A stretch of 64,000 nt of DNA, taken from assembly GCA_965222615.1 (NCBI GenBank), contig CBDCUI010000009.1, positions 256,001 to 320,000 on the forward strand, read 5' to 3'. How positions within the stretch are numbered: the stretch's first letter is position 1; each line of letters opens with the position of its first letter. The position numbers and the translations under genes are program-made. The notes below the pieces were generated by a model. That model saw only the letters and a program-made list of their open reading frames with translations, searched no databases and had not been told where the DNA came from. Of the stretch, positions 1 to 16,569 are shown in pieces. The DNA comes from Gammaproteobacteria bacterium. Lineage in GTDB: Bacteria; Pseudomonadota; Gammaproteobacteria; UBA4575.

Positions 1-642
1 GGTGACTTCGTTTTGTTTGGCCTGTTGTTCAATCGTTTGATCAAGTTCTTTTACACGCGCATCTAATGTTAGTACGTCATGTTGAAGTCCCTGTAGTAAA
101 GAACGAAAGTGTGGCGTTAAGCCATTCTCTCCGTCTTCTAACCAAGTCGGTATTGCAGCGCGTAATCGATGTAACTGTTGGGGTGCGACTAAGCCATATT
201 CACTCACTAAGCCTCGAATCTGATTGGCTTTAGCGGTGCGTTGTTGCACCAAAGTATTACGCACACGATGCAGGGCCTGAATGTCTTGCTGTTCAATACT
301 TTTGATCGTGACAAAGCGCATGTTGGGGCGACTCATGGCTTCGCAAATGGCTTCGGCATCGTTGGCATCATTCTTGTTGCTCTTTACATAAGGCTTTACA
401 AACTGGGGTGCAATCAATTTCACCACATAGCCTCGTTGTTGTAATACACGAGCCCAGTGGTGTGCACCCGAACAGGCCTCCATGCCAATCTCACCACCCG
501 GTTCAACATGCTCCACTAATACCTTAAGCCACTTGCTTCGAGATAAGCGTCGTTTGAATACGCACTTTCCCGTGCGATCCACCCCGTGTAGTTGAAAAAC
601 ATGCTTTGCCAAATCCACACCCATGCGTGTAATCTTGTTCAT
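1..642 (-). CDS. IS110-family DEDD transposase, N-terminal part (runs off window)
   Basis: Same sequence as the 5' part of the 2985-4019 transposase; start codon at 642. Confidence 0.92.
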   Translation of the reverse strand, partial: MNKITRMGVDLAKHVFQLHGVDRTGKCVFKRRLSRSKWLKVLVEHVEPGGEIGMEACSGAHHWARVLQQRGYVVKLIAPQFVKPYVKSNKNDANDAEAICEAMSRPNMRFVTIKSIEQQDIQALHRVRNTLVQQRTAKANQIRGLVSEYGLVAPQQLHRLRAAIPTWLEDGENGLTPHFRSLLQGLQHDVLTLDARVKELDQTIEQQAKQNEVT

Positions 643-734
643 GTATGGTCTCCTTTATTCAAAGTAACTGGTTCTATCGCTTCCAGTATGGGCACATTAC
701 GATGCCGTTTAAAGTTGAGGGAGGCCATACCATT
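1..734 (-). mobile_element. IS110/IS1111-family element, copy 1 (truncated by window start)
   Basis: Appears identical to 3378-4111 (offset 3377), including subterminal IR GAGGGAGGCCATA at 717-729. Confidence 0.92.
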
Positions 735-756
735 GCTATTGGACGAAAGCAGACAT
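735..756. repeat. Right part of 28-bp palindromic repeat (copy A), split by IS1111
   Basis: GCTATTGGACGAAAGCAGACAT, matching GCTATTGGCCGAAAGCGGACAT at 4112-4133. Confidence 0.8.
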
Positions 757-816
757 AATTGAGGACAAATCAGGTTGGAATCAACAAACTACAAACATAA
801 AATGACTGCTTACGAC

Positions 817-2047
817 TGCCGATTCAATTGATCACCGCAACACTTTATCTTAAGTAACAAAAAAGATGGAGTGTGAAGGATGGGCTATCGAACACGCATT
901 TATTATAGCGAAGCACAAAAACAGGTGATGTGGGATCGCTGGCAGCAAGGTGATTCTCTCCACACTATTGCGCGCCTTTTTAATCGTGGGCACTCATCGA
1001 TACGACGGATACTTGCAGAAACAGGTGGCATTCGCCCTCCTCAACGAACACGATCAGGCTTCGCACTGACGTTATCGGAACGCGAAGAAATTTCTCGTGG
1101 ACTCGCACGGAATGTATCTTTGCGATCGATTGCTAAACAACTAAAGCGTTCACCTTCCACCATCAGTCGCGAGATTCAGCGCAATGGCGGCATTGCGACA
1201 TATCGCGCGAATGAAGCGGAACAAGCTGCGTGGGATCGGGCGCGCCGTCCTAAAACGTGTAAACTCGCTAGGAACAAAGACTTGTGTCATGCCGTAGCAA
1301 CCAAGTTGCAATTACATTGGTCGCCGGAGCAGATTGCGGGTTGGTTAAAACGCACCTATCCTAATGATGAGAGTAAGACCGTGTCGCATGAAACGATTTA
1401 TCGCAGTTTGTTCATTCAAGCCCGCGGAACCCTGAAAAAAGAGTTACTTGCGTATCTGCGCACGCAACGGACTTTACGTCAGTCAAAGAAAGCCAGTTTG
1501 AAAAACCAAGGCTTAGGTCAAATTAACCATGCGGTCTCCATTCGACAACGTCCGGCATCGGTGGAAGATCGTGCCGTACCGGGACATTGGGAAGGTGATC
1601 TCATTGCAGGCTCAAACAACAGTTATATTGCCACCTTGGTCGAACGACATACACGCTATGTCATGCTAGCCAAAGTAAAGAATAAAGACACGAAGAGTGT
1701 CATCAATGCACTTATCAAGCAAGCGAAGAAATTGCCGAATGAGCTCTACAAATCGTTAACCTGGGATCGCGGTAAAGAGATGGCCGATCATCAACGCTTT
1801 ACCTTAGCGACCGAAATCAAAGTCTACTTTTGCGATCCACAAAGTCCGTGGCAACGGGGTTCAAATGAAAATACAAATCTACTACTTAGACAGTACTTTC
1901 CAAAAGGAATGGACCTGTCTAACATTCATCAGAATCGATTGAATGCAGTAGCAAGACAATTAAACGAACGACCTAGGAAAACACTAGAATTTGAAACACC
2001 AGCAGAAAAATTTAACCAATGTGTTGCAGCGATCGGTTGAGATCGCA
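817..2047 (+). mobile_element. IS30-family insertion sequence (1231 bp)
   Basis: 27-bp imperfect IRs TGCCGATTCAATTGATCACCGCAACAC and (rc) TGCGATCTCAACCGATCGCTGCAACAC; 2-bp AC duplication at 815-816 and 2048-2049. Confidence 0.92.
880..2040 (+). CDS. IS30-family DDE transposase
   Basis: HTH N-terminus, WSPEQIAG, GHWEGD, TWDRGKEM, PWQRGSNENTN and LNERPRK motifs. Confidence 0.96.
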   Translation: MGYRTRIYYSEAQKQVMWDRWQQGDSLHTIARLFNRGHSSIRRILAETGGIRPPQRTRSGFALTLSEREEISRGLARNVSLRSIAKQLKRSPSTISREIQRNGGIATYRANEAEQAAWDRARRPKTCKLARNKDLCHAVATKLQLHWSPEQIAGWLKRTYPNDESKTVSHETIYRSLFIQARGTLKKELLAYLRTQRTLRQSKKASLKNQGLGQINHAVSIRQRPASVEDRAVPGHWEGDLIAGSNNSYIATLVERHTRYVMLAKVKNKDTKSVINALIKQAKKLPNELYKSLTWDRGKEMADHQRFTLATEIKVYFCDPQSPWQRGSNENTNLLLRQYFPKGMDLSNIHQNRLNAVARQLNERPRKTLEFETPAEKFNQCVAAIG

Positions 2048-2081
2048 ACCCAAAGCGGACATTTCTAACAATCATAAATAC

Positions 2082-2683
2082 ATGACTAAAACGAAAATAA
2101 TTGTATTAAGAATTTTAGCTATACTAGCTATAGTTGAAATACTAATTTTAGTATTCGCTGGATTTCAGCAAATATCGGGCACTAAAGAATTATTTGAAAG
2201 CTTTGAAGGTCCACTTCCACTAATAACAACTGTTTATCTAGTACATAAAAGTGTAGAAGAGGTTAGGCGAGATTCGCTTCGATATAAATATTGGATTCAA
2301 TTTCTGTTTGCTAAACTGGCGGTGTCCATATACTAAAACGAAAATAATTGTATTAAGAATTTTGCTATACTAGCTATAGTTGAAATACTAATTTTAATTC
2401 GCTGGATTTCAGCAAATATCGGGCACTAAAGAATTATTTGAAAGCTTTTCCACTTCCACTAATAACAACTGTTTATCTAGTCACGTATAAATATTGGATT
2501 CTACTGGCAATATTCCCTCTATTTATTTTTGTTAAATCGTTTAGGGAAAAATTTAAATCACGTAATTCATCAAGTCCATTTGTTTCGTTGCTTATTGCAT
2601 TTATTATTATTGGGATACTAATATTTGTAGGAATTATATTTGCAATGTATGCGCCTATTTGGGAATTGTCTAATAAGGCTTAA
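2082..2683 (+). pseudogene. Small membrane-protein gene disrupted by an imperfect tandem duplication (or assembly artefact)
   Basis: About 2085-2241 recurs at about 2332-2481 with small deletions. The joined protein MTKTKIIVLR...PLPLITTVYLV-TYKYW...AMYAPIWEL is hydrophobic and resembles a PilC/GspF membrane segment. Confidence 0.55.
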
Positions 2684-2719
2684 GTGATGATATTTTTATG
2701 ACCGTATATGGCCTCCCTC

Positions 2720-2984
2720 CGTTTGCAAGCAAAATATTCAATGACAAAGTAGAGTCGACTGCACACGTATATTCGGCCTCTATTGATAGCAAGCGTTGAT
2801 GCTGGGCCAGGATGGTGTATTCGCACCTAAGCACCCAATCGCTATTACGTACTCGAAGTACCTGGACATTCACGGGTTACGCTTAGGTCGGTTCGACCGG
2901 TTTGCCATCTAATAAATTACTTTGCAATCGTGGTAGATAATCCTCTTAAGTGTAAGTACATGTAATTTCGTTAATTGTTTTATT
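2720..2984 (-). ncRNA. Predicted IS1111 bridge/seek RNA region
   Basis: Non-coding end 3' of the transposase. On the minus strand it carries target-matching ATGTCC and AATAGCG around a GTAC-TTCGA-GTAC hairpin, and donor-matching ACCAT and ATATAC. Exact RNA ends unknown. Confidence 0.7.
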
Positions 2985-4019
2985 TCACATAAGCGCAAAG
3001 TTCGGATCATATTCACTTTCATCTCGCAACATTGCAAATGCCATACGCACGGTTTTATTCGCCAGTGCGACAGCGGCCACATTCGTATGTTTGGTTTTAG
3101 AAAGATGCGTGACCCACTGACTCAATCGATCCTCTTTATGTTTCGCTTGCGAGACGACAGCCCTTGCTCCGTGAATGAGTAAGGTGCGCAGATAGGCATC
3201 GCCGCGTTTACTGATTTCCAGTAAACGCTCTTTATTGCCTGAACTGTGTTGTCTGGGGGTTAAGCCTAAGGCTGCCGCCATCTGGCGACTGCTCTTGTAT
3301 TGTTTGGCATCGCCTACCGTGGCAATCAATGCTGTGGCCACCATCGGCCCGACCCCTCGTAGCTGTTGTAGACGCTTGGTGACTTCGTTTTGTTTGGCCT
3401 GTTGTTCAATCGTTTGATCAAGTTCTTTTACACGCGCATCTAATGTTAGTACGTCATGTTGAAGTCCCTGTAGTAAAGAACGAAAGTGTGGCGTTAAGCC
3501 ATTCTCTCCGTCTTCTAACCAAGTCGGTATTGCAGCGCGTAATCGATGTAACTGTTGGGGTGCGACTAAGCCATATTCACTCACTAAGCCTCGAATCTGA
3601 TTGGCTTTAGCGGTGCGTTGTTGCACCAAAGTATTACGCACACGATGCAGGGCCTGAATGTCTTGCTGTTCAATACTTTTGATCGTGACAAAGCGCATGT
3701 TGGGGCGACTCATGGCTTCGCAAATGGCTTCGGCATCGTTGGCATCATTCTTGTTGCTCTTTACATAAGGCTTTACAAACTGGGGTGCAATCAATTTCAC
3801 CACATAGCCTCGTTGTTGTAATACACGAGCCCAGTGGTGTGCACCCGAACAGGCCTCCATGCCAATCTCACCACCCGGTTCAACATGCTCCACTAATACC
3901 TTAAGCCACTTGCTTCGAGATAAGCGTCGTTTGAATACGCACTTTCCCGTGCGATCCACCCCGTGTAGTTGAAAAACATGCTTTGCCAAATCCACACCCA
4001 TGCGTGTAATCTTGTTCAT
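2985..4019 (-). CDS. IS110-family DEDD transposase/recombinase
   Basis: GVDLAK, MEACS, KNDANDAEAI, GVGP and GLTPRQHSSG motifs. Confidence 0.96.
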   Translation of the reverse strand: MNKITRMGVDLAKHVFQLHGVDRTGKCVFKRRLSRSKWLKVLVEHVEPGGEIGMEACSGAHHWARVLQQRGYVVKLIAPQFVKPYVKSNKNDANDAEAICEAMSRPNMRFVTIKSIEQQDIQALHRVRNTLVQQRTAKANQIRGLVSEYGLVAPQQLHRLRAAIPTWLEDGENGLTPHFRSLLQGLQHDVLTLDARVKELDQTIEQQAKQNEVTKRLQQLRGVGPMVATALIATVGDAKQYKSSRQMAAALGLTPRQHSSGNKERLLEISKRGDAYLRTLLIHGARAVVSQAKHKEDRLSQWVTHLSKTKHTNVAAVALANKTVRMAFAMLRDESEYDPNFALM

Positions 4020-4235
4020 GTATGGTCTCCTTTATTCAAAGTAACTGGTTCTATCGCTTCCAGTATGGGCACATTACGATGCCGTTTAAAGTTGAGGGAG
4101 GCCATACCATTGCTATTGGCCGAAAGCGGACATCAAGGTTAGCCAATGAAGAGAATAGGGCGCGTTAACTTTTTAATAATAGTTGGGGAGTCATAGATTG
4201 GCCGAGAGGGGATTTATATAGTTCTTTATTTTATA

Positions 4236-4652
4236 ATGTATGAATGGGAATTAATGCTGCTAAAAAAACGTGCCAAAGAACGTGGTCGAATTGCTAGGCA
4301 AGAGCTCTTACTGGCCGACGGTGGCTGCATTAGTGCCGCGGATGCTGCAAAGCAACTGGGAATCACGGAGGTAGAGCTTGAGAGAATCCGTAGTTCTAAT
4401 CAGTTATTGGCTGTTGATGTTGATAGCAAGTTTCAATATCCGATTTGGCAATTCGAGGGAGCAAATTTAGTTCCCGGATTACAAGAAATATTAGAAATAC
4501 TTGGCGATGATGATCCGTGGTCGAATTTCATCTTTTTGTTGGGTCACGACTATGCAGTAGATGGATGTCGTCCAATCGACAAACTTCGTGTAGGTGATAT
4601 TGATTCAGTCAAACGCGCTGCACATACGTACGGTCATCATGGTGCAGTTTAA
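4236..4652 (+). CDS. HTH + Xre/MbcA/ParS-like antitoxin-type protein (copy 1)
   Basis: HTH-like AAKQLGIT, YPIWQF and C-terminal DG.RP...LR.G pattern. The sister copy suggests the true start is ATG 4244 with an extra A in the run at 4262-4268. Confidence 0.6.
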   Translation: MYEWELMLLKKRAKERGRIARQELLLADGGCISAADAAKQLGITEVELERIRSSNQLLAVDVDSKFQYPIWQFEGANLVPGLQEILEILGDDDPWSNFIFLLGHDYAVDGCRPIDKLRVGDIDSVKRAAHTYGHHGAV

Positions 4653-4675
4653 ATAAAGCAAATAATAGGTAATTT

Positions 4676-4858
4676 ATAAACAATTCAATTCAACGCATAC
4701 CTGGAATTGCTGGAAGCAAACCATTGCTCAAGTGTGTATGCGTCCCCACAAAAATAATTGCAGAGCGATTTAAAGCCGGCGAATCAATTAGTGCGCTTGC
4801 AGTGGACTATGGTTGTAGGAACACAGAAATAGAAGAAGCGATTAGATTCGAACTTTAG
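4676..4858 (+). CDS. Small DUF433-like protein (not in ORF track; no ATG, start uncertain)
   Basis: Frame reads ...IPGIAGSKPLLKCVCVPTKIIAERFKAGESISALAVDYGCRNTEIEEAIRFEL*, a DUF433-like pattern conserved in the sister copy. Confidence 0.55.
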   Translation: MNNSIQRIPGIAGSKPLLKCVCVPTKIIAERFKAGESISALAVDYGCRNTEIEEAIRFEL

Positions 4859-4879
4859 TCACAAATCTCCCGAAATAAA

Positions 4880-4992
4880 CCTGAATTCCAGGTACTTACT
4901 TTTACTCCCGAACTTACACTCAAGTACCGAATTTTACTCCTGGGGGACTGATGTTTACTCCCGAAAAGTGCTGGGTATTACTAGGAATTACA
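4880..4992 (-). repeat. Tn7-like transposon end with about four TnsB-type binding repeats
   Basis: rc TGTAATTC followed by repeated (G/T)AGTAAAA...GTACTT-like units. Confidence 0.8.
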
Positions 4993-5037
4993 ATAGTCTC
5001 GAACCGATAAGGTGATTAACCATCTGGTTAATCGTTT

Positions 5038-5065
5038 TCTTAACATAATATATATTATGCGAAGT
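5038..5065 (-). other. dif: dif site (XerC/XerD chromosome dimer resolution site)
   Basis: rc ACTTCGCATAA-TATATA-TTATGTTAAGA, compared with E. coli GGTGCGCATAA-TGTATA-TTATGTTAAAT. Confidence 0.9.
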
Positions 5066-5109
5066 TAAATATGTGGGTGCCTAATAGAATTTGACGTCTC
5101 TTAAACATG

Positions 5110-5215
5110 TGTGATTCTTAGTAAAACCAAGCACTTTTCAGGACTAAAAGTCAGTACTTCAGGAGTAAAACTAAGTACTTGAGTAATTAATAAGACTAAA
5201 ACTAGATACCTGAAT
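5110..5215 (+). repeat. Tn7-like end (tns-distal, dif-facing) with closely spaced TnsB-type sites
   Basis: TAGTAAAACCAAGCACTT, GACTAAAAGTCAGTACTT, GAGTAAAACTAAGTACTT, GACTAAAACTAGATACCT. Confidence 0.85.
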
Positions 5216-5244
5216 TCATGATCTATTTCTAAAGATTTGTGACT

Positions 5245-5427
5245 TTAAAGTTCGAATCTGATGGCTTCTTCGATATAAGAGTCTTTACAGCCGTAATCCA
5301 TAGCCAGCTCAGTAATCGATTCGCCGGCTTTAAATCGCTCTGCAATTATTTTTGTGGGGACGCATACACACTTGAGCAATGGTTTGCTTCCAGCAATTCC
5401 AGGTATGCGTTGAATTGAATTGTTTAT
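5245..5427 (-). CDS. Small DUF433-like protein (copy 2; not in ORF track)
   Basis: C-terminus AGESITELAMDYGCKDSYIEEAIRFEL*, frame preserved despite DNA divergence from copy 1. Confidence 0.55.
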   Translation of the reverse strand: MNNSIQRIPGIAGSKPLLKCVCVPTKIIAERFKAGESITELAMDYGCKDSYIEEAIRFEL

Positions 5428-5450
5428 AAATTACCTATTATTTGCTTTAT

Positions 5451-5858
5451 TTAAACTGCACCATGATGACCGTACGTATGTGCAGCGCGTTTGACTGAAT
5501 CAATATCACCTACACGAAGTTTGTCGATTGGACGACATCCATCTACTGCATAGTCGTGACCCAACAAAAAGATGAAATTCGACCACGGATCATCATCGCC
5601 AAGTATTTCTAATATTTCTTGTAATCCGGGAACTAAATTTGCTCCCTCGAATTGCCAAATCGGATATTGAAACTTGCTATCAACATCAACAGCCAATAAC
5701 TGATTAGAACTACGGATTCTCTCAAGCTCTACCTCCGTGATTCCCAGTTGCTTTGCAGCATCTGCGGCATTAACGCAGCCACCGTCGACTAGCAAAAGTT
5801 CTTGTCTGGCTATTCGACCACGTTCTTTAACACGCTTTTCTGCAGCACTAATTCCCAT
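5451..5858 (-). CDS. HTH + Xre/MbcA/ParS-like antitoxin-type protein (copy 2)
   Basis: Same protein as 4236-4652 except for the N-terminal part. Confidence 0.65.
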   Translation of the reverse strand: MGISAAEKRVKERGRIARQELLLVDGGCVNAADAAKQLGITEVELERIRSSNQLLAVDVDSKFQYPIWQFEGANLVPGLQEILEILGDDDPWSNFIFLLGHDYAVDGCRPIDKLRVGDIDSVKRAAHTYGHHGAV

Positions 5859-6055
5859 CTCAGTATTATAAAGAATTAATCAAGTCCCCTCTTCGTTGTA
5901 TGTATCACTCCCCAACTATTGCACAAAAGATGGGGAGCGAATCATACATATTAACTATCTGTTTTATAATAATATTTTCAATTATTTTGTTGAAAAAATA
6001 ACATAACTAGAGTAAATTTCTCACCAACTTTTTGAGTAATAGATAAATAGTTGGT

Positions 6056-6706
6056 ATGTTAGAAACATCAACATCCGAAGTGAAAAACTTCAATCACCCA
6101 GCTCCTGGGTCGACCATAAAAGTCGAACCAATTCGAACTGTTCAAGCGATTCACAAAATTAAAACCATGCTTGAACCTAATCCGCGTAACTATTGTTTAT
6201 TCGTTCTTGGGATTAATACCGCATTTCGAGCTTCTGAATTACTTTCAATAAAGATTGGACAGGTTAAATATTTAAATCCAGGAGATCGGTTAGAAGTTAA
6301 ACAACCAAAAACGAAAAAGTATCGATCCGTGACAATCAATCAGTCAGCTCATGATGCGATACGTCGATTAATTATAGAAAAAGATATAGAAGCTCTCAAA
6401 AAAAGAAACTTGAATATCTCTGATGACGATGCATTTCTATTTACTGGCCAACGCGGATCGTCAGCTCTTAAGGTTTCAACTTTAAACAATATGGTTAAGG
6501 ATTGGTGTAGAAAAGTTAATCTGAAAGGTAATTTTGGTAGTCACACTCTACGAAAAACCTGGGGATTTATGCAGCGCAAGAAGCAAGACACCCCTATTCC
6601 TTTATTGATGCAAGCATTAGGTCATGCAACTCAAAGACAGACTATGGAATATTTATGCATTCAAGAAAAAGAAATTGAGAATGTTTATACAGCAATGGAA
6701 CTATAG
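6056..6706 (+). CDS. Small tyrosine recombinase/integrase (catalytic domain only)
   Basis: NTAFRASE (R), KTKK (K), HTLRK (HxxR), LGH (H) and TMEY (Y) all present. Confidence 0.9.
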   Translation: MLETSTSEVKNFNHPAPGSTIKVEPIRTVQAIHKIKTMLEPNPRNYCLFVLGINTAFRASELLSIKIGQVKYLNPGDRLEVKQPKTKKYRSVTINQSAHDAIRRLIIEKDIEALKKRNLNISDDDAFLFTGQRGSSALKVSTLNNMVKDWCRKVNLKGNFGSHTLRKTWGFMQRKKQDTPIPLLMQALGHATQRQTMEYLCIQEKEIENVYTAMEL

Positions 6707-6827
6707 TAGTGGCTAGGATTTATACAACCTTTCAAAGCTATATATTATTCTATGATGTATCCATATACTTTATATAGAATAATGTTACGTTTACTCCTAA
6801 TGGTGGTGCGCATAATGAGGGTTAAAA

Positions 6828-7832
6828 ATGGCACACGGTAGATTGCTCAGACAACTCATTCGTGCTGGTGTTAATGCGCCCGGAGAAGAATTTCGTGAGG
6901 TAGCCGAAAAGGTTATTCGCGAAGAACGTGAAAAAAAACATCATTTACTAGCTAATGATCTAGAACGGATTCTGTACGGCGAAAGTAATGATGAAGCACG
7001 TACCCTCTTACCACTATCGCTACCTGAAGTGCCAAAGGATCGAGAGCGACATATACCACTTTTAGAAATTCGCGAACCAGTTCGTTCTTTCGCAGACATT
7101 GTTCTTACCAAAGACAACCGTGAGATACTCGAACATGTTTTGCAAGAACAGGGACGGCGTGATGTGCTTGGCTCTTATGGTTTGAAACCTGCCAATCGTT
7201 TACTATTCTGCGGGCCACCTGGATGTGGAAAGACCTTAGCTGCAGAAGTATTAGCGACCGAGCTTGGTTTACCACTACTCTTAGTGCGCTTTGATGCGGT
7301 TGTGTCATCCTATCTTGGTGAAACTGCAGCAAATTTACGAAAAGTGTTTCAGTACCTTGAAACTGGACGTTATGTTGTTTTGTTTGATGAGTTTGATGCG
7401 ATAGCAAAAGATCGTGCGGACGCATCTGAGCATGGTGAATTACGAAGGGTTGTAAATGCATATCTGCAAATGATGGATAGCTATCGTGGCAATTGTTTGT
7501 TACTTGCCGCATCAAACCATGAAGGTTTACTTGATAAAGCCCTTTGGCGACGATTTGATGAAGTACTTTTCTATCGTCGCCCAACAACAGAAGAAATTAT
7601 TGATTTGGTTGCTGTAAAACTTCGAGGTATTCGCTATAACTTTGAAACAGAAAACGAACCGACTATCGCTAACTTCAATGGGATGGCGCACGCTGACATT
7701 GAGCGTGTATTGATCCGCGCAATTAAACATATGATCTTATCGGGTCGTGAATTTTTAAGCACTGACCACATCGCACTTGCCCTAGAACGAGAACGGGAAA
7801 GACGATCTGTCGCTGAACATAAGTCGATTTAA
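6828..7832 (+). CDS. AAA+ ATPase, IetA-like
   Basis: Walker A GPPGCGKT, Walker B VLFDEFD, LDKALWRRFD; directly upstream of an S8 protease. Confidence 0.85.
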   Translation: MAHGRLLRQLIRAGVNAPGEEFREVAEKVIREEREKKHHLLANDLERILYGESNDEARTLLPLSLPEVPKDRERHIPLLEIREPVRSFADIVLTKDNREILEHVLQEQGRRDVLGSYGLKPANRLLFCGPPGCGKTLAAEVLATELGLPLLLVRFDAVVSSYLGETAANLRKVFQYLETGRYVVLFDEFDAIAKDRADASEHGELRRVVNAYLQMMDSYRGNCLLLAASNHEGLLDKALWRRFDEVLFYRRPTTEEIIDLVAVKLRGIRYNFETENEPTIANFNGMAHADIERVLIRAIKHMILSGREFLSTDHIALALERERERRSVAEHKSI

Positions 7833-7837
7833 CAGTA

Positions 7838-10147
7838 ATGGTAGATCGACTACCGCATCTAAGAATGGCTCGAGCAGAGCCGATTAACGAACGACGCCGA
7901 CGACCAGGATTTGGACCTGGGCGGCCTAAAGACCCTGGTCGTCACGCCCAAGAGTTAAAAGAAAACCTTGATGAGCATAAAGACTCACCAGAAAACGAAT
8001 TAGCTGGTTTCGATCCGCGCCACTTACTCAAACTCGAAATCGAAGGCATTGCTGGTGATGAGCTTTCAAACATTCCAGAATTCAGTGTCGTTACTGAAGA
8101 AGGGAGTAACGTAACTGTGTTGTTTGCTACGGAAAGCGCATTGAAAGAATTTCGTAGTCGATTAGAACAACTTGAAGCAGGTAATCGTGCGACACGTGAG
8201 CAAATATTATTTGCAGTTAAGGGATTTGATTATATTACTGCGGATGATCGCCGAGGCCCCCGGTTAAGCACGGATGGAACGCCAAACAAAGAGCTTTTCA
8301 TACTGGATGTTGAACTTTGGGCGCTTGATCTTCGTAATGAACGAGATGCGATGATCGAATATTTCGTTGAGTTTTGTCATCAATCTAATATTGACATTCG
8401 TGATCAAGTTAATCATCCATCGCTTGTTTTGTATCGTGTAGAAACATCTTCTGATGGTCTAAACAAATTACTTAACATGCGTGATGTAAGGCGTGTTGAC
8501 TTACCCCCTCAATATGAATTTGAGATGGAGTTACTTGATGCGACGGTGAACTCATTACCAGAAATTAAACCACCACCCGACAACGCACCCACCATAGCAA
8601 TATTAGATTCAGGAATAGCCAGTGCTCACCCACTTTTAGAGCATGCTGTTGGAGACGCTCAATCATTTGTTGACGAAGATCCCATCGACCTTGTTGGCCA
8701 CGGTACTACAGTAGCAGGTCATGCTTTACTTGGTGATGTAGCAACTGTCGCTCAAAGCGCAACGCATACCGCTGAACTTCGAATACTCAGCGGTAAAATT
8801 GGTCAAGGCCGAGATGATGTAACTTTGATTGAAAATCGCATTATTGAGGCGGTGCAATATTTTAAGGAACACTATAATTGTAGAGTGTTCAACCTATCTA
8901 TCGGTGTTTATGCTCGCCCTTACCTAGGCGGACACGTTGATAGACTTGCAGCTACTATTGATTGGTTATCTCGTGAGTATCAAGTGCTGTTCATTGTCTC
9001 GACGGGTAATATCCATTCAAGTGTGCAAGGGCCAGCCAATTGGCGAGAAGGTTACCCACGCTATTTGTTGGAAGATGAATTTCGCTTGTTAGATCCTGCT
9101 CCAGCATTGAACGCAATAACAGTAGGCGCATTAGCTAATTATGAGGTCGCCCGAATGGCTGCACGTAATCCTGACGATCCTTCATATCAACCTATTGCGC
9201 ATCGTGATCAACCATCACCCTTTACGTTGTGTGGTCCAGGTCCAAATGATGCAATAAAGCCAGATTTTGCCGACTACGGTGGTAATCGTTATATTGATTC
9301 ACGCCAAGCACCGCGACCATTAGCAGGAAATGAATTAGGTGAGCTCGGATTAAGTAATAAATTTGCCACTGGAAACTTGTATAGAGTTTCAGTGGGCACA
9401 AGTTTTGCTGCACCTCGTGTTGCACACTGTGCTGCACATATATTACGTCAGTATCCCGATGCGTCACCGTCGCTTCTTAGGGCGTTGTTGGCTGCTCATT
9501 CAACTGTGCCTACTTCCACAGCGGATTTGGATCTAGACAAATCAGAGGTACTACGTCTTGTTGGATACGGTAAGCCCAACAAAGAATATTCACTGTATTC
9601 CGAAAACAATCGCGTTACAATTTTGGCCGAAGAGACACTTGCTCCTAATGAACATCACTTCTACCAACTTCCTATGCCGGATGATCTTTTTAAGTCTCCT
9701 GCTCGTCGACCTCGACGAATTACTGTTGCTCTCGCACATACGCCACGAGTTCGACGAACGCGTTTAAAATACCGGGAAAGTGAGATGTCTTTTCGAATAA
9801 TTAAAGCCGAGAGCCTTGAATCCGTGACTCAAGCTTATCGGAGGCTGCGGAAAGATGAGAAAGAAGATCTAATTCCGGAAAGTGATTTCACACCAGGCCC
9901 TACGCTGCGTGAAGGTGGTTCATTGCAGTGTGCTACACGCATACTTGGTCAAGTGGATGAGCGATACCGAAGAAAACCATACTTCTTAGTTGTAACCAAT
10001 AATGTACCAGATTGGGTTAGCTCAATTGATTCGGAGCCTTATTCGCTTGTAATCGTTATTGAAGATCAATCAGACGTTGAAGTAAATCTATATACGCAAA
10101 TCCAATTAGAGCTACAAGAGCGTGTGCGCACACAGGCTCGGAATTAA
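7838..10147 (+). CDS. Subtilisin-like S8 serine protease, IetS-like
   Basis: Catalytic triad ILDSG / GHGT / GTSFAAP; no signal peptide; 5 bp after the ATPase. Confidence 0.88.
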   Translation: MVDRLPHLRMARAEPINERRRRPGFGPGRPKDPGRHAQELKENLDEHKDSPENELAGFDPRHLLKLEIEGIAGDELSNIPEFSVVTEEGSNVTVLFATESALKEFRSRLEQLEAGNRATREQILFAVKGFDYITADDRRGPRLSTDGTPNKELFILDVELWALDLRNERDAMIEYFVEFCHQSNIDIRDQVNHPSLVLYRVETSSDGLNKLLNMRDVRRVDLPPQYEFEMELLDATVNSLPEIKPPPDNAPTIAILDSGIASAHPLLEHAVGDAQSFVDEDPIDLVGHGTTVAGHALLGDVATVAQSATHTAELRILSGKIGQGRDDVTLIENRIIEAVQYFKEHYNCRVFNLSIGVYARPYLGGHVDRLAATIDWLSREYQVLFIVSTGNIHSSVQGPANWREGYPRYLLEDEFRLLDPAPALNAITVGALANYEVARMAARNPDDPSYQPIAHRDQPSPFTLCGPGPNDAIKPDFADYGGNRYIDSRQAPRPLAGNELGELGLSNKFATGNLYRVSVGTSFAAPRVAHCAAHILRQYPDASPSLLRALLAAHSTVPTSTADLDLDKSEVLRLVGYGKPNKEYSLYSENNRVTILAEETLAPNEHHFYQLPMPDDLFKSPARRPRRITVALAHTPRVRRTRLKYRESEMSFRIIKAESLESVTQAYRRLRKDEKEDLIPESDFTPGPTLREGGSLQCATRILGQVDERYRRKPYFLVVTNNVPDWVSSIDSEPYSLVIVIEDQSDVEVNLYTQIQLELQERVRTQARN

Positions 10148-10287
10148 AGTTTCGAATTTCTGCGTGCAAACTCTATGATGAAATCGACAAGATATGCAGT
10201 ATCGTTTTTAACCATACCACACGTATTTTCACCCCCAACTTTTATTAAAAAGTTAACGCGCCCTATTCTCTTCATTGGCTAACCTTG

Positions 10288-10567
10288 ATGTCCGCTTTTG
10301 GCTGTGGTCTCAATAGGTCGATGCAACACTTTGAAATAGAGTGAAAAAAGGCTGCAAAAGCTAAGAGAAATGCAATTACATCAACATCTTAAGAGTAGAT
10401 CAATAAAAGATGGCTCGAAGCAAGTAATAATGCAGTATTTAATGTAACCGGTTCATCCAAAAACAACTCAACACTAAATGGTCATCCGTTTGAGTCAACC
10501 TCTTTATTACTAAAAGTTTAGCAAGGTGTTGCATTGACCGATTGAATCGGCAGTCGTTAGCGGACAT
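10288..10567. repeat. 28-bp palindromic repeat (copy D), split at its centre by a MITE
   Basis: ATGTCCGCTTTTG-GC (10288-10302) plus CGTTAGCGGACAT (10555-10567). Confidence 0.82.
10303..10552 (-). mobile_element. IS30-like non-autonomous element (MITE, 250 bp)
   Basis: IRs TGTGGTCTCAATAGGTCGATGCAACAC and (rc) TGCCGATTCAATCGGTCAATGCAACAC resemble the IS30 ends at 817 and 2047; no transposase; flanks GC and GT. Confidence 0.78.
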
Positions 10568-10651
10568 TATATGGGTATTAAGATCATTACCCAACAATTA
10601 GGCAAAAGTTAATAGATAATTATTCCTGAATTTCTTTGTACGACCCTCATA

Positions 10652-12238
10652 TTAGAATGAACCATGCACGTGCATAGATCTTTCGACTATTTCATCCCTG
10701 CCTTTTTGTTTTACATCGCTCAAATTAACTAGTATTGGTAGGAATGTTAAGTGTTCGTATACGATCTTATTATTAGTGATGTCAATAAAAGATAGCGTTT
10801 TTGCAAAATTGAGTTTATTTAGATCGCGCTCCAAGTTATCTGAATGCACCCATATTTGTTCACTCAAAGAAACTAACCATACAAATTGTAAATAAAGTTC
10901 TGCAAGGTATTGCCACAACCATTCTTTGGTAAACCGATAGACAAAGGGTCGATTATTAAAATGCATGCATTTACTATCTTCAGACCATAATAATTTTCCT
11001 GGACCGTTTTCTGACCAATCCATCCATACCGATGAATCCAAATAATGTGATGCGTAGTCCTCTACATTAATTATTTGCCCTTGCGGAAATACACATTTTT
11101 GCCAAAGCGAATATGCAGTACACCATAATGACGTAGCTTTAGATAATTTGACACTACAAAACTTATTACAGTGAAACATAGTCCCTGACTTACGACTTGA
11201 ATAATCAATATGCACTTTCAATTCCTGATCAAACGACTTTATGAAGGATGTTATAAATTGAGTGAGGTGGTTATAAGTCCGTAATTTGGGGAATCTTTCT
11301 ATCAAATTTTTACCGTTTAGGTATTCTTTAGTAAGAGTTCTATCACGTAGAATCTCCTTGTAATTTTTTACGTCATACTTATCGAAACAACCCACATCAC
11401 ATGAAAGTGGATAAAATTCCCTAGTAGGGATATTTATTTTTGATTTCAAGTACGTGGTTTTTGAAGTTCTAACATTTCCAACGTTAACTAAACAAGTCTT
11501 CACCCAATCCGGACCAGCTGAAAAATGATGTAAATAGGCTAAATTTGCATAGTCGACACAACCCTTCAGCCAAATCCGAACAGAATTGGAAGGGTTATTG
11601 AGTTCCTCGGCTTTGTTAATCCAATATCTATATTCTTCTATTATTTTCTTGCGTTCTAAAATATCTGTGCCGACTCTATATCTATCTATATCCCAAAAAT
11701 TTGTTCCACACTTAATGTTAGGGCAACTATATATTTGTAAGAAAGCATTCGTAACTTTATATTTATGTAAATAGCTCCCACATTTTATACAGATAGTAGT
11801 TAATGGAGCGTGATGAATTGGGCAGTGACTCCATGCGAGAATTTGATGGAAAACAAGATGTGTGCCCCGCTGGACACATTGAGGACAAATGCGTAAATGT
11901 TTTGATAAATTTAATGGATTGTTAATAGAGATTGTTGATTTATAGGCACAGATGTTTTTGATATTCGAGGAATAGTATTCTCCACACGATGCCTCTAACC
12001 AATCACTCTTCCAACCAGTCAGCTGCAGAATTCGTTTTACGTTAAAATTACGAACGTCGTCTGGATAGGTGCTTATATCGCTAATGTAATCCGACGCATA
12101 ACTTTTTCGAGTTCCAAAGTTTCTTTTAAAGTCTGACCAATCAAAATGATTTAATATTGCTAGCTTCGCTGTAATAGACCACAGAGTCTCACCTATTGGA
12201 TTCCATTCTTGAGCACCAATCAGGCTACGGCTATTCAT
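10652..12238 (-). CDS. tniQ: TniQ/TnsD-family target selector
   Basis: P.GETLWS start, Zn-finger pattern CPQC...HQ...CPIH...CIKC...CPNIKC; follows tnsC; long C-terminal extension. Confidence 0.8.
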   Translation of the reverse strand: MNSRSLIGAQEWNPIGETLWSITAKLAILNHFDWSDFKRNFGTRKSYASDYISDISTYPDDVRNFNVKRILQLTGWKSDWLEASCGEYYSSNIKNICAYKSTISINNPLNLSKHLRICPQCVQRGTHLVFHQILAWSHCPIHHAPLTTICIKCGSYLHKYKVTNAFLQIYSCPNIKCGTNFWDIDRYRVGTDILERKKIIEEYRYWINKAEELNNPSNSVRIWLKGCVDYANLAYLHHFSAGPDWVKTCLVNVGNVRTSKTTYLKSKINIPTREFYPLSCDVGCFDKYDVKNYKEILRDRTLTKEYLNGKNLIERFPKLRTYNHLTQFITSFIKSFDQELKVHIDYSSRKSGTMFHCNKFCSVKLSKATSLWCTAYSLWQKCVFPQGQIINVEDYASHYLDSSVWMDWSENGPGKLLWSEDSKCMHFNNRPFVYRFTKEWLWQYLAELYLQFVWLVSLSEQIWVHSDNLERDLNKLNFAKTLSFIDITNNKIVYEHLTFLPILVNLSDVKQKGRDEIVERSMHVHGSF

Positions 12239-12250
12239 TATTTGATAATG

Positions 12251-13240
12251 TTAATGTGCTGTACGTACAACTAGATCTTTAATCTGTTCAATTGCTACAT
12301 GGCTGATAGCATCTTCGATGAATCTCTTTTCCAATTGAAGTGACATATCATCTTGTTCTGGCAATGCTTTTAGTATCCAACGTAATAACGCTGAGATCGG
12401 TTGTAGAGGAATTTCATCAAATTTTGCAATATGTTCAGCTCTGCACATCTCCATAAGAGAATCCCAAATTAATTCTGCCGAATCTAATAAACGCCAGCCT
12501 GCGTCATAAGCTTGTGGAGCAAAATACCTTGTATAGGAGCATCCCGACCCAGGAGGATATTCTGAATGTGAATCGAGCATTTTTATTATGCGTCTAAAAT
12601 CTCTTTTGTCGGCAATGCCTTCAAATCGATGTGTCGCAGTCATGAATCGCCCAAGCAATTGTTGCTTTCCTGAACTTCTGAAATTGTTTTTTATATCTAT
12701 TAATTCTGGTTGACCGACTAGCACTGTCACTAAACGCACGTCTTTCATTTTCAATGAATTATGAAGATCCATAAGATATTCATATTGTGTTAAATCTAAC
12801 CATTCTGCTTCATCAATAAATAAAAGATAACGATGTTCACGCGTTTGAAAGGCACGCTCAACCATAAAATCAATACAACGTCTGCGCTTTATTCTTGCGG
12901 CTTTAGAATCAATTAATGAATAATTTAGTGCTTGCAGCATCTCATCAAAGAAGCGTAATTCAGTAGTACTACTTTGTGATGGTTGCCACATGCTCAACAT
13001 CGTAGTTGGAATTGGGCTTCCTAAAACTTCTTCACAATTATCAACAATGTAACGAATTGCTTGAGTCTTCCCTACCCTTTGATTTCCCCACACTAAACCG
13101 CCTGGTAAAAGTTTATCCAACCAAACTAGAATTGCATTTACGAATTCTTCTAATGGACGCGTCGGAATAATTGCTGCATCACGCAATATTGGGTGATCGT
13201 CAATAAACTCTACTCTCTCGTTATTATGCTTTCTTTCCAT
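12251..13240 (-). CDS. tnsC: TnsC/TniB-like AAA+ transposition regulator
   Basis: Walker A GNQRVGKT, Walker B LLFIDEAE, VLVGQPEL, QLLGRF. Confidence 0.85.
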   Translation of the reverse strand: MERKHNNERVEFIDDHPILRDAAIIPTRPLEEFVNAILVWLDKLLPGGLVWGNQRVGKTQAIRYIVDNCEEVLGSPIPTTMLSMWQPSQSSTTELRFFDEMLQALNYSLIDSKAARIKRRRCIDFMVERAFQTREHRYLLFIDEAEWLDLTQYEYLMDLHNSLKMKDVRLVTVLVGQPELIDIKNNFRSSGKQQLLGRFMTATHRFEGIADKRDFRRIIKMLDSHSEYPPGSGCSYTRYFAPQAYDAGWRLLDSAELIWDSLMEMCRAEHIAKFDEIPLQPISALLRWILKALPEQDDMSLQLEKRFIEDAISHVAIEQIKDLVVRTAH

Positions 13241-13252
13241 TGTGTTTATATG

Positions 13253-15148
13253 CTATCGAGTTGTATGTACTTTATTTAATGAAACCCAGTTCTCGTGTTT
13301 CGTAGGTATATTCTGTTTTTCTTGTTTTAGTTTGTTGAATTCTGTTGAGGAGTGCTGCAAATGCAGAAGTCGGTTTCTATCTTTTCTATATTTATTGGCG
13401 CGTTTATTGAGAAAGTTCATGTAGTCTGATAACGGTGTGAGCGTGTCAGAATATAAACGCTTTTGCTTTATAAGTTTTAAAATTGCACATCTTATTTTTA
13501 AGCTATGTGGATAGATCATCCAGCGTTCTTCTGCTTCAAGACGACCTATACATTTGCCATTTTCTAAAAACAGTAACCCTGTGCGTATGTCTTTAATGTT
13601 TACGCGAAATGTTGCACGTTGATTTGTATATTGAGTATTAATTCTTAAGAAGTCACTGGAATATCTCACTCCTTTGAATTTTATATAGGGTCGGTGCTGA
13701 TGCTCACGACTTGACCGTATCGTGACAAAATAATTTCTTTCAAATAAGGGAATATTATCCGGTTGTTGATTTGTTAGATATCGTGGTATATCCCCTGCTC
13801 GATCAATTCGATAACGGATGTATTCAAGTGGCGTGCGACCATTCAGACTGGTGTGAGGGCTCGCATTATAGTTTGCGATAGCGACATCTGTAACGAGTTC
13901 AAGGTTTTCATACTCGATTAAGAGTTTTTTTGCTTGCTGTGTTGCGTTTCTTCTTCTCGGATCTTGTGGATTTGAACCAGTTGTATTTGGCCATCTATGT
14001 AAAGATGCTTCTTCAAACGTCCTCATGAATCTTTCAATTATTGAATTAGATCGAGGTCGTCGAGCTTTATTGCTGATGATCTCTATTGCACCCGTTGAGA
14101 TAATTCTGTTTTGTAGCCAACTAGAAATATTTGCATATGCATTGTCTAGTTGGACAACATCAAATGATCTCCAAGCGCATTTATCAATAACACCAGATGG
14201 CAATCCCGCATTTCGCTTGTAATGAATAACGCCGTTGGTATTTTCTTTTGGTAACCACGGTGTGAATGAACTTGCTATGCATTCTAGCAAGTCTTCCATA
14301 GTGTAATTTTCCGATAAGCTTAAGCTATAACCAAGAATCGCCCTGCTCGACACATCAATTAGTACGAGCAACCAAATTCTAGAAAGCGGTAGTTCTTGTT
14401 CTTCACCAAATTGGTCTTTGATGCGGATGATTAGTTCAGCATCAAGGCGATGTGCATCAAACTGCACCTTATTATATGGTTTTAGTATTGGGACAGCGTT
14501 ATTTAAGCAGATATGATTTGTAGTGATCGATTGGATGTTATCGCCAAACTCAGCAATCGCTCCTTCAATAAAATTCTCTTTTTGAACTTTTCTGCAATAG
14601 TTACGAATTACCTCTCTACCACCGTCACGATTACTGAAGGGATAATCCAATTCGGTATCAATGCCTTTTGCTGTACAATTATCTTTAAAAGCTTCCCAAA
14701 TGATTTTAGTATTTCTACCGCGCACATAGCACTCATCTATTTTTTTCTTTCCTAATGCCCATCCTTTAAGGCTATCTTCAAGATTTGGATATTGACGTAG
14801 AAATTGACTAAATAATCCAGCATGCCCAGTTAACTTGTTGGTTGTACGCTCATACTTTTTAAATCGAAAATTTGGGATACAAGCTGTATACCCCCACGGA
14901 TCTCCATCTGGCGATACGTCAAAGGCACGTTTAAGAATTCGTATTAACTCTGATTTAGATAATCCGCATTTATAAAGTATTTTTTCTATTGACAAATCGG
15001 ATGATAAATATAGGTCAACAGCACGTTTTCTACGATTAAATTTCGCTTTTTTAGCAGCAGAAAATGAACTTACATCAACCGGAAGCCAGTTGTTTGGCTC
15101 TAAGTCTTTTGATAGATGATTATTTTCAAGACATAGTTTCCTGATCAT
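13253..15148 (-). CDS. tnsB: TnsB-like DDE transposase
   Basis: QFDAH, IDVSSRAILG, QLDNA, IIERF, YNASPH motifs. Confidence 0.87.
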   Translation of the reverse strand: MIRKLCLENNHLSKDLEPNNWLPVDVSSFSAAKKAKFNRRKRAVDLYLSSDLSIEKILYKCGLSKSELIRILKRAFDVSPDGDPWGYTACIPNFRFKKYERTTNKLTGHAGLFSQFLRQYPNLEDSLKGWALGKKKIDECYVRGRNTKIIWEAFKDNCTAKGIDTELDYPFSNRDGGREVIRNYCRKVQKENFIEGAIAEFGDNIQSITTNHICLNNAVPILKPYNKVQFDAHRLDAELIIRIKDQFGEEQELPLSRIWLLVLIDVSSRAILGYSLSLSENYTMEDLLECIASSFTPWLPKENTNGVIHYKRNAGLPSGVIDKCAWRSFDVVQLDNAYANISSWLQNRIISTGAIEIISNKARRPRSNSIIERFMRTFEEASLHRWPNTTGSNPQDPRRRNATQQAKKLLIEYENLELVTDVAIANYNASPHTSLNGRTPLEYIRYRIDRAGDIPRYLTNQQPDNIPLFERNYFVTIRSSREHQHRPYIKFKGVRYSSDFLRINTQYTNQRATFRVNIKDIRTGLLFLENGKCIGRLEAEERWMIYPHSLKIRCAILKLIKQKRLYSDTLTPLSDYMNFLNKRANKYRKDRNRLLHLQHSSTEFNKLKQEKQNIPTKHENWVSLNKVHTTR

Positions 15149-15887
15149 GAGAACTGGATTTTATTATTGTTTTTATTGTTAATGGGTATGTGTCTAAATC
15201 AGATGAAAGTACCCCTTTGTGTAAATGTTTTGCTAAACAAGCAATAATATGCTGAGATTCAGACGCGCAGAGATTGATGATTTTCTCAAGGGTTATTTCT
15301 TTGTAGTTCTTACAAAGTTCCAAAACCTCTCTTTCAAGCAAAGGATCTGGGCTCTTATAGGCGTTTCTTGCATGTGAGAGCAGCTCACGCCAATTAAAAA
15401 TTAGAATTTTGTCTTTCTCTAAATTTTTATTAGTTATAAATTCACATCTGTAGCCATTTTCACTTCCCCACCTCTCAATTAAGTTCCAATCTTTGGGTCT
15501 AGTTGTTCCAGAATTGTCCTTCCTAAGAGAGGCTTCATTGAGAACTTCATAGAATACTTCTTGTTTTGACTTAAAGGTGAAACTTAAATCAAATGTGTAG
15601 TGAGGTTTGTTTCTTAGAGGCGCTTCTATCCGCAGTGGTCGCTCGCATAATTTTGTTATTGAAGGTTCCGCTTCTGCTTTTATGATTGCATCAGCAATTA
15701 GATCTCCGGCGACACAGACTTCTCTCATACCAGCCTTGATACTAAAAATGCGATGATATCTGCAGTTAATTTGTTTTTTTAGAGGCAATAAATGCGGGCC
15801 TCTAAACATTTTAGCTTCTATAAAACGTGCTGAATTGAAGTTCTCAGTGGATAAGTTGTTCTTATTATTTGCAACTACATCAGTCAT
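15126..15887 (-). CDS. tnsA: TnsA-like endonuclease
   Basis: First gene of the operon, overlaps tnsB; ERPL...YTFD...FYEV nuclease-like pattern and C-terminal winged-helix-like segment. Confidence 0.72.
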   Translation of the reverse strand: MTDVVANNKNNLSTENFNSARFIEAKMFRGPHLLPLKKQINCRYHRIFSIKAGMREVCVAGDLIADAIIKAEAEPSITKLCERPLRIEAPLRNKPHYTFDLSFTFKSKQEVFYEVLNEASLRKDNSGTTRPKDWNLIERWGSENGYRCEFITNKNLEKDKILIFNWRELLSHARNAYKSPDPLLEREVLELCKNYKEITLEKIINLCASESQHIIACLAKHLHKGVLSSDLDTYPLTIKTIIKSSSHDQETMS

Positions 15888-16032
15888 AAATTTGTAAACT
15901 AATAAAGATGACTGTTCTAAATTAATAAATAATTACTATCTCAATCAACATAAAATTGTCTTGTAATATCAAGATTTTGATCTGTTATGTTTCTTAACTA
16001 ATTATGTTAGCCGTGTATAGCATTGTGAACAC

Positions 16033-16047
16033 ACACTATATGTAGTG
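16033..16047. promoter_or_regulatory. NrdR-box-like palindrome in the tnsA/XRE divergent promoter region
   Basis: ACACTATATGTAGTG versus NrdR consensus acaCwAtATaTwGtg; single copy only. Confidence 0.4.
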
Positions 16048-16187
16048 GGTAGCATTGTTTTACTATCGCTTTTTTCATGAATTTTAGGAAATTTTGCATA
16101 TTTTAAGAATATATGTAAAAAAATGGTTGTATAAATAATCTAATATTTCGATCGTTTTAGATCAAAATTTTGTTTAATATTTTGTAT

Positions 16188-16565
16188 ATGGGAAGAGACT
16201 TAAAAGTACTCGGCGAAAACATAACGTTACTGCGTAAACGTTTATGTTTGAAGCAAGACCAGTTGGCTGAAATTGTTGGAACTTCCCAGTCACAAATTAA
16301 TGCGCTCGAAAGCAAGAAAACTTGTAATCCTGGTTATTTCATTGTTGAAGCATTAGCAGATTTTTTTGGTGTTAATAACTGGGATCTTGTTCATAAGCGT
16401 CTGGTGAACTTGAGTCCGAAAGAGCAACTTATTAATAGAGTAAGAACAAACACATCTGACAGTGATTTTTTACAAATTAAGCATCTAGTAGATGGTCAGC
16501 ATCTTGAATACGCGAAAAGCGGTAAATTTCGCTACGAGTATCGCCAGATAAAGAAAAGTAACTAG
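16188..16565 (+). CDS. XRE-family HTH transcriptional regulator
   Basis: LRKR..LKQDQLAE.VG.SQSQI..LE...NP motif; ATG at 16188 preferred over TTG 16170. Confidence 0.85.
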   Translation: MGRDLKVLGENITLLRKRLCLKQDQLAEIVGTSQSQINALESKKTCNPGYFIVEALADFFGVNNWDLVHKRLVNLSPKEQLINRVRTNTSDSDFLQIKHLVDGQHLEYAKSGKFRYEYRQIKKSN

Positions 16566-16569
16566 AAAA

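Follow-up and report, generated by a model that had tools for sequence, protein, structure and literature searches.

A 28-bp palindromic repeat at the junctions of accessory gene modules in Proteobacteria, and the insertion sequences that target it

Background

The locus presented here raises the question of what a short palindrome may be, and how it is used, when each of its local copies is found cut in two by a mobile element. The window (i.e. the whole stretch of 64,000 nucleotides that was analysed, positions 256001-320000 of contig C9 of a gammaproteobacterial genome of 3.10 Mb and 39% GC, hereafter G000, its relatives being designated G001 and so on) contains four such copies, sites A to D, which are split by insertion sequences (IS) or by a miniature inverted-repeat transposable element (MITE). 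The original prediction, made from the letters of this stretch, took them for the recombination sites of an integron-like array capturing genes as cargo of a Tn7-like element, exploited by IS as landing pads and possibly served by a 216-aa tyrosine recombinase encoded nearby or by XerCD. We find that the cassette-like organisation is real and extends far beyond the window. As to the nature of the repeat itself, we are inclined to see in it a module-junction element comparable to the repetitive extragenic palindromes (REPs) and bacterial interspersed mosaic elements (BIMEs) of other bacteria, a reading that we hold with moderate confidence and weigh below against its rivals. The GroEL protein of G000 reaches at most 80% identity to those of gammaproteobacterial metagenome-assembled genomes, and the organism is taken for a soil-type gammaproteobacterium.

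Results

The four sites are genuine copies of one 28-bp dyad repeat, each split by its IS at a fixed position, and they stand where they had been placed, apart from small corrections of coordinates (Table 1); the 45-bp spacer announced between A and B was also borne out. The consensus, ATGWCYGCT-N10-AGCRGACAT, is laid out as 11-bp arms around a 6-nt centre. The 10-bp core had been described as variable, and it does differ between sites, but it is restricted to a few fixed types, here one with a TGGCCG-like centre (type 1) and one with a CGACCC-like centre (type 2); among the loci that we retrieved, the form seen most often combines perfect 11-bp arms with a TGACCC centre. There is no intact site within the window (no match at three mismatches or fewer). 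The left 7 nt of site A lie immediately beyond the window edge, at C9:255305-255311, and a fifth site, split by a third IS, is present just left of the window at C9:253700. When G000 was scanned with a weight matrix that incorporated the hand-rebuilt sites, 59 rows reached a score of at least 12, versus 2-4 in three shuffled genomes; the genome holds about 30 copies, about nine of them good intact ones.

Copies of the repeat occupy short spacers right after stop codons, either singly or as doublets and triplets of fixed order. In G000, G001 and G006, doublets consist of a type 1 site, a spacer of 31-55 nt and a type 2 site; the spacer often contains GGTTGGAA, a motif that recurs in seven G000 doublets and is also found in G001 and in metagenome contigs. 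Alphaproteobacteria have triplets instead, with one stem, three centre types, 17-nt spacers and a pitch of 45 + 45 nt. No Rfam family matched the sites in the 68 kb of arrays that were scanned. A second family of repeats, about 50 bp long (beginning ..GCACATGGATGTGC..), was noticed at no fewer than 14 places in G000 (see L332, 2930-3000, and L333, 2879-2930). It stands at the edges of blocks made of genes and sites, one of these blocks being flanked by inverted copies of it, and in three places it precedes a type 2 site at a fixed distance.

The organisation of the sites is clearest in G006, a complete genome, where they bracket modules of one to a few genes, of foreign composition, in co-oriented arrays lying between site-free core genes. 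There, the next site is at 3 kb or less for 81% of 96 exact sites, versus 18.5% at random. Four arrays (100 kb in total) contain 74 sites, 65 of them on one strand, and 54 inter-site segments with a median length of 782 bp and a GC content ranging from 27.8 to 51.8%, against a background of about 39%. Within these arrays the orientation of the sites is uniform irrespective of gene strand, 55 of the 81 open reading frames (ORFs) of at least 70 aa being on the same strand as the sites (as counted from the ORF listing). The genes are unrelated to one another (SDR, adenosine deaminase, methyltransferase, ferritin, aldehyde dehydrogenase, SnoaL, sulfatase, ligand-gated channel), and most of them are without homologue in G000; the blocks that flank the four arrays show synteny with G000, at 65-87% amino-acid identity, and are devoid of sites. 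No recombinase or transposase was found among the 59 ORFs of two of these arrays and their flanks. At the scale of the chromosome, site orientation in G006 flips near 0.29 and 2.1 Mb, and the sampled GC skew near 0.7-0.9 and 1.85 Mb. One high-GC module of this genome, between two reversed sites, contains a match to the c-di-GMP-I-GGC riboswitch (L155, 11825-11939; 57.1 bits versus a gathering score of 59).

From one related genome to another, modules occupy different loci together with their sites. In the congener G001, whose syntenic genes share about 77% nucleotide identity with those of G000, a six-module array occupies a locus where G000 has other genes. A module encoding an RRM protein is bounded by sites in G001 and is present at two other loci in G000, the homology stopping at the outer edge of the site; a relative of this gene lies between sites in G006. 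Likewise, a GNAT gene found between a type 2 and a type 1 site in G001 is at a different locus in G000, and in both G000 and G006 a site comes after a SnoaL gene. At the three loci around G000 sites that were compared with G001, the G000 site is always part of a block of genes and site of 1.3-4.6 kb, in place of which G001 has a spacer of 38-67 bp; the genes of the three G000 blocks occur elsewhere in G001, beside degenerate sites. All three empty spacers of G001 are free of both site and target duplication, and the absence of a site from the empty loci makes them a poor fit to site-by-site integration. In three soil metagenome runs (from one study), many contigs match the site only, with loose ends that start at the site borders. 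We rejected the apparent joints at sites in these data as contigs hopping between similar sites, and the uncovered flanks of the RRM module are uninformative there because contigs break at the repeat.

The repeat had been regarded as a feature of Tn7-like cargo; instead, many Proteobacteria carry tens to hundreds of copies of it. In a collection of species-representative genomes (one genome per prokaryotic species), at least 149 stretches contain it, and the record titles of the matches listed include Pseudolabrys, Xanthobacteraceae, Hyphomicrobiales, Sphingomonas, Rhizobium, beta-proteobacteria, a Coxiellaceae metagenome-assembled genome (MAG), Lysobacter soli, Pseudomonadales and one Udaeobacter MAG. 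It is thus present in Alpha-, Beta- and Gammaproteobacteria, with copy numbers per genome from about 10 to several hundred, and at loci whose GC content ranges from 31 to 63%. Among 41 relatives, 16 carry it, with 1 to 220 strand-hits each (counted at one mismatch or less, near-perfect palindromes scoring twice): 9 in G000, 10 in G001, 147 in G002, 220 in G006 and 173 in G019. Five other genomes gave 34 to 776 strand-hits, and many small genomes of the same family gave none. The doublet of G000 had no match in 72,556 plasmids, nor in phages; the triplet of Alphaproteobacteria had two weak partial matches in the plasmid collection. In Alphaproteobacteria with high copy numbers, the neighbours of the sites include ordinary transporters and regulators.

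The association of sites with IS far exceeds chance, and the idea that the sites serve as landing pads is supported in the strong sense of specific targets: four IS or MITE lineages have 19 full-length copies in G000, every one of them in a site, and about two thirds of the sites of this genome are occupied in this way. Each lineage has its own point of entry. The six copies of two IS1111-like lineages (79% identical to each other) all cut type 1 sites after position 7. Another element of IS1111 type, about 1.38 kb long, is present as five full copies plus one at a contig end, and all six cut type 2 sites after about position 18, the site at C9:253700 being among them. Both copies of an IS30-family element and all five full copies of a MITE are at the exact dyad centre (13 + 2 + 13); the IS30-family element inserts with a 2-bp duplication, and matching 2-bp flanks are seen in four of the five MITE copies. 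Four IS lineages, three of IS1111 type and one of the IS30 family together with the MITE, have specialised on the repeat.

The IS1111-type elements have the DEDD and Transposase_20 domains, the subterminal inverted repeats (extended by 7 nt and 3 nt) and the long 3' non-coding region that PMC11187229 gives as marks of this family, the rule on the extensions included. In both of the 79%-identical lineages, the 3' non-coding region contains two 7-mers, 68 nt apart, which match both target strands, and that of the third element contains an 8-mer and a 9-mer matching the sequence that flanks the cut; all these matches are short. As this region has short stretches that match the two strands of the target, RNA from it may guide the choice of target, which would be consistent with the seekRNA or bridge-RNA mode described for the IS1111 family (PMC11187229). 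IS30-type elements, for their part, may target the repeat in other classes too. In a Maricaulaceae MAG, an intact site is found some 400 bp away from an IS30-family transposase gene (L011, 2425-3642). In G000 itself, an array downstream of groEL (C7:813-823 kb and C8:0-4.7 kb) is crowded with IS1111-type, IS30 and MITE copies and stops at contig ends, the assembly having probably broken there because of these repeats and IS.

No dedicated enzyme was found to co-occur with the repeat among the five families tested. The integron integrase (TIGR02249, over cut-off) is present in only two of the 16 site-bearing relatives (G000 and G002; six of the 41 overall) and in none of the richest carriers G006, G019 and G007. 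The Y1 transposase or REP-associated tyrosine transposase (RAYT; PF01797) was detected in six and not found in ten, including G006 and G019, whereas an IS110-type transposase is present in five and a serine recombinase in four. A homologue of the 216-aa recombinase was found in one, G000 itself, and in 0 of the other 15, so that its proposed role as partner of the sites is not supported. Sites are absent from the surroundings of six intI genes (to about 1.5 kb) and of six RAYT loci, and the 17 loci examined around intI, rec216-like and RAYT genes yielded no site except one weak match. Only two tyrosine-recombinase matches came from a complete chromosome of an alphaproteobacterium that carries about 60 sites. 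XerCD, the other partner proposed, is unlikely, because the arms of the sites share no run with those of dif, the chromosomal dif candidate being located in the window itself (Table 1). Small tyrosine recombinases encoded beside sites in two alphaproteobacterial loci (L014 and L063) were rejected as coincidental, since they are only 22-27% alike, both to each other and to the 216-aa protein. Beyond the window, G000 has a full integron integrase gene (C9:397324-398262; TIGR02249, 490 bits), with no 28-bp site nearby and no repeated attC-like family around it by self-BLAST.

Discussion

Of the proposed integron-like capture array, the cassette-like arrays stand, with segments that vary between relatives; the role of the repeat as a recombination site does not follow, as it is without co-occurring enzyme and the empty loci are site-free. 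The original prediction had opposed single-gene modules to a REP-like scatter of sites over the genome, and what we see is half of each: the sites are scattered genome-wide as REPs are, yet single-gene modules are present. Our best guess is therefore a junction element rather than the substrate of a resident dedicated recombinase. The 28-mer could act as a portable homology, able to form a hairpin or a cruciform, and recombination at it, via host functions or an enzyme supplied in trans, would produce gains, losses and shuffling of modules.

The likeness to REPs and BIMEs lies in short imperfect palindromes, intergenic and placed after genes, in tens to hundreds of copies (only about 30 in G000), in mosaics of two or three units in fixed order, and in their being targets of IS110/IS1111-type and other IS. 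REPs are established hot spots for IS (PMC1525189), and IS1111-type elements are known to target both REPs and attC sites (PMC11187229). There are also differences. The present 28-mer is nearly the same across three proteobacterial classes; there is no link with RAYT (PF01797 in 6 of 16), a link that some REP classes also lack (PMC3733652); the tag outside the stem that the GTAG and CGTC classes of REPs carry (PMC3733652) is missing from the sites; and the arrays that we examined flank accessory modules, not core genes.

Several observations weigh against a REP-like junction element, and they should be acknowledged together. REPs are normally genus-specific and also found among core genes, whereas this repeat is nearly identical across classes and absent from the core blocks beside the examined arrays, an indication of a specific, conserved partner, one that we did not find. 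With their 11-6-11 layout, their constantly asymmetric arms, their small set of fixed centres and their uniform orientation within arrays, the sites resemble the core sites of a site-specific recombinase. The single-stranded DNA hairpin predicted for the repeat is only moderately stable (-5 to -6 kcal/mol, z from -2.4 to -4.2), and 4 of 18 homology end-points fall within 30 bp of a site, versus 14% at random, too small a number to carry weight. Finally, the co-occurrence tests covered five enzyme families in 41 genomes that are related and non-independent.

The most serious competitor, which we nevertheless think unlikely, is a true site-specific cassette system, in which a dimeric recombinase, acting in trans or since lost, would use the 28-mers as its core sites, with arms of 11 bp and an overlap of 6 nt. 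Modules would be flanked by unlike centres, and excision, integration or exchange would take place between like sites only, as with heterospecific lox sites. This would account for the geometry and the fixed centre types, for arrays whose sites are co-oriented whatever the strand of the genes, for G001 modules that run from a type 2 to a type 1 site, for a GC content specific to each module, for the same modules at different loci and for the conservation of the site across classes. It has to contend with the rarity of every candidate enzyme (IntI in 2 of 16 site-bearing relatives and without a site nearby, the 216-aa recombinase in 1 of 16, serine recombinases in 4 of 16, the two tyrosine-recombinase matches of the chromosome with about 60 sites), with the 59 ORFs of G006 arrays and flanks that include neither recombinase nor transposase, with three empty loci out of three that are site-free, and with arms unlike those of dif.

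Two known systems invite comparison on this point. attC sites have conserved GTTRRRY and RYYYAAC boxes, paired as R and L. Clusters of attC sites lacking integron integrases (CALINs) resemble the present arrays in being co-oriented, with mostly single, unrelated genes of foreign GC, each followed by a palindromic site, in having a content that varies between relatives, in being targeted by IS1111-type elements and in the absence of a neighbouring integrase. However, our repeat is 28-29 bp long instead of about 55-140 bp, it is conserved in sequence rather than in structure only, its units contain no GTTRRRY or RYYYAAC box (by that definition of attC), and it neither co-occurs with IntI nor is present near the intI of G000. 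The second system is that of the pdif modules: 28-bp Xer sites of 11-6-11 layout bracket small modules on Acinetobacter plasmids, with no local recombinase. The sites described here have the same length and layout and also bracket small gene modules without local recombinase, but their arms are unrelated to the dif of this chromosome, their orientation is direct and not alternating, and the repeat is chromosomal, nothing having been found in the 72,556 plasmids apart from the weak partial matches of the triplet.

It is more doubtful still that each module is a non-autonomous transposable unit with different hairpins at its two ends, type 2 on the left and type 1 on the right, moved in trans by a single-strand (HUH) transposase in the manner of passenger-carrying IS200/IS605 derivatives or of MITEs, doublets being two units head to tail. 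The fixed polarity of modules (type 2 to type 1) and of doublets (type 1 then type 2), the blocks inserted where the congener is site-free and the inverted copies of the second repeat around one block would be expected of such units. We consider this improbable, as PF01797 was not found in 10 of the 16 site-bearing relatives, including the richest (G006 and G019), none of the six RAYT loci has a site nearby, the three comparisons of filled and empty loci show neither target duplication nor a constant flanking tetranucleotide, and many modules of G006 are separated by single sites of the same type. That the palindromes are mere by-products of IS (footprints or duplicated ends), as one could suspect from the window, where every copy is joined to an IS, can be dismissed with near certainty, since there are IS-free, site-rich genomes (G002, G006, G007, G009, G014, G019 and G022 have no detected IS110-family transposase), intact sites exist in G000, and the IS ends share no sequence with the arms of the sites.

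If the REP-like junction element is considered further, two families of repeats described elsewhere come close to it. QMITE2 of Coxiella burnetii is a small palindromic target of IS1111, with relatives of 83-100 nt in Bradyrhizobium, Rhodopseudomonas and a gammaproteobacterium (PMC5896051), and shares with our repeat this role in IS1111 insertion; going by its description in that source, it is 150-190 bp long, with terminal repeats and direct repeats of 7-11 bp (PMC5896051), features not seen here. No genome with many IS110-type copies, as in C. burnetii, was found among the 41 relatives or among 36 genomes of the family of the Coxiellaceae MAG. The dRS3 repeats and Neisseria intergenic mosaic elements (NIMEs) are genus-restricted, and NIME units are non-coding fillers. 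They resemble our arrays as clustered short dyad repeats downstream of genes that are targets of DEDD-type recombinases; they differ in sequence and size, in their restriction to one genus and in enclosing fillers where we find gene modules. dRS3 is mentioned among clustered CGTC-type repeats in PMC3733652. The repeats Br-REP1 and Br-REP2 of Bradyrhizobium were considered as possibly the same repeat and rejected, their consensus sequences being different from ours in the account of PMC5082802. A literature search with two arm 11-mers returned unrelated primer lists only, and we found no published description of the repeat.

Should the repeat be no more than a REP-like junction, it remains a useful marker of horizontally acquired single-gene modules in many soil Proteobacteria, and it accounts for the accumulation of three kinds of IS at identical points, where they break assemblies and drive deletions or inversions. 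As a recombination site, it would represent a second, integrase-independent route to gene-cassette arrays, and the long-standing question of the origin of integrase-less cassette clusters would become testable. The boldest formulation, to which we give a rather low probability, is that of a gene-cassette system spanning classes without an integron integrase, in which modules, bounded by 28-bp core-type sites with a few unlike centres, would be exchanged between like sites by an enzyme, or by host recombination with the 28-mer as portable homology, and whose junctions would be parasitised by IS. The IS1111-type elements of this genome would also offer natural guide-target pairs for RNA-guided recombinases.

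Other features of the window

Table 1. Position of the split sites, of the elements inserted in them and of neighbouring features (coordinates of the window).
Feature	Position	Strand	Remarks
IS1111-type element, copy 1	1-735	-	runs past window start; whole copy G000:C9:255312-256735; transposase ORF 1-642; 98.9% identity to copy 2
Site A, right 21 nt	736-756	+	type 1, centre TGGACG
A-B spacer, 45 bp	757-801	+	type 1 - type 2 doublet; recurrent GGTTGGAA at 773-780
Site B, left half	802-816	+	type 2; includes 2-bp duplication AC at 815-816
IS30-family element	817-2047	+	transposase 880-2040; HTH_38 and rve domains; at dyad centre of site B
Site B, right half	2048-2062	+	includes duplicated AC at 2048-2049
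B-C module	2063-2697	+	small ORFs; internal duplication
Site C, left 7 nt	2698-2704	+	
IS1111-type element, copy 2	2705-4112	-	transposase 2985-4019; DEDD_Tnp_IS110 and Transposase_20
Site C, right 21 nt	4113-4133	+	type 1
Orphan right-end copy of Tn7-like element	4119-4992		terminus 4974-4992
dif-like 28-mer	5038-5065		best of the genome; at GC-skew switch of the contig
Tn7-like element	5110-16733		tnsA, tnsB, tnsC, tniQ; right end 5110-5128
216-aa tyrosine recombinase	6056-6706	+	cargo of Tn7-like element; unlinked to site family
AAA ATPase and S8 peptidase	6828-10147		match IetA and IetS defence models (E 2.6e-93, 1.1e-197)
Site D, one half	10287-10301	-	type 1-like; adjoins 70-bp flank homologous to 4119-4188
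MITE, 251 bp, IS30-like ends	10302-10552	.	dyad centre of site D; unequal 2-bp flanks GC/GT
Site D, other half	10553-10567	-	type 2-like

Sites C and D had been assigned to homologous positions in two sister transposons. The inverted homology on which this was based is real (4119-4188 is the reverse complement of 10233-10302, 70 bp, 97%), but the left sister is an orphan copy of the right end, of about 870 bp only, and a single set of tnsABC-tniQ exists in the whole genome. Site D is a hybrid, the half that precedes 10568-10610 being, with this segment, homologous to the left half of the site at C9:253700 and its flank (58 bp, 98%). It could have been taken as proof of a site-specific crossover. 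We rejected this, because the unequal 2-bp flanks of its MITE are better explained by recombination between two MITE copies.

The ORFs of the B-C module gave no significant Pfam match, only sub-threshold ones (E about 0.006-0.007). An imperfect internal duplication of about 250 bp (2086-2700) interrupts a small ORF there that resembles a membrane protein.

The orphan copy and the right end of the Tn7-like element (5110-5920) form an inverted duplication of about 0.87 kb (89% identity over 821 bp), which includes ORFs of 138 and 135 aa, not assigned to a family, and the Tn7-like end repeats. The two right ends face dif from both sides, inward, at 44-45 bp. This arrangement suggests that the TniQ of the element selects dif; we know of no described Tn7-like element whose TniQ does so. 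A search by peptide patterns found no TniQ relatives. The IetAS pair is cargo of the same element and adjoins the 216-aa tyrosine recombinase.

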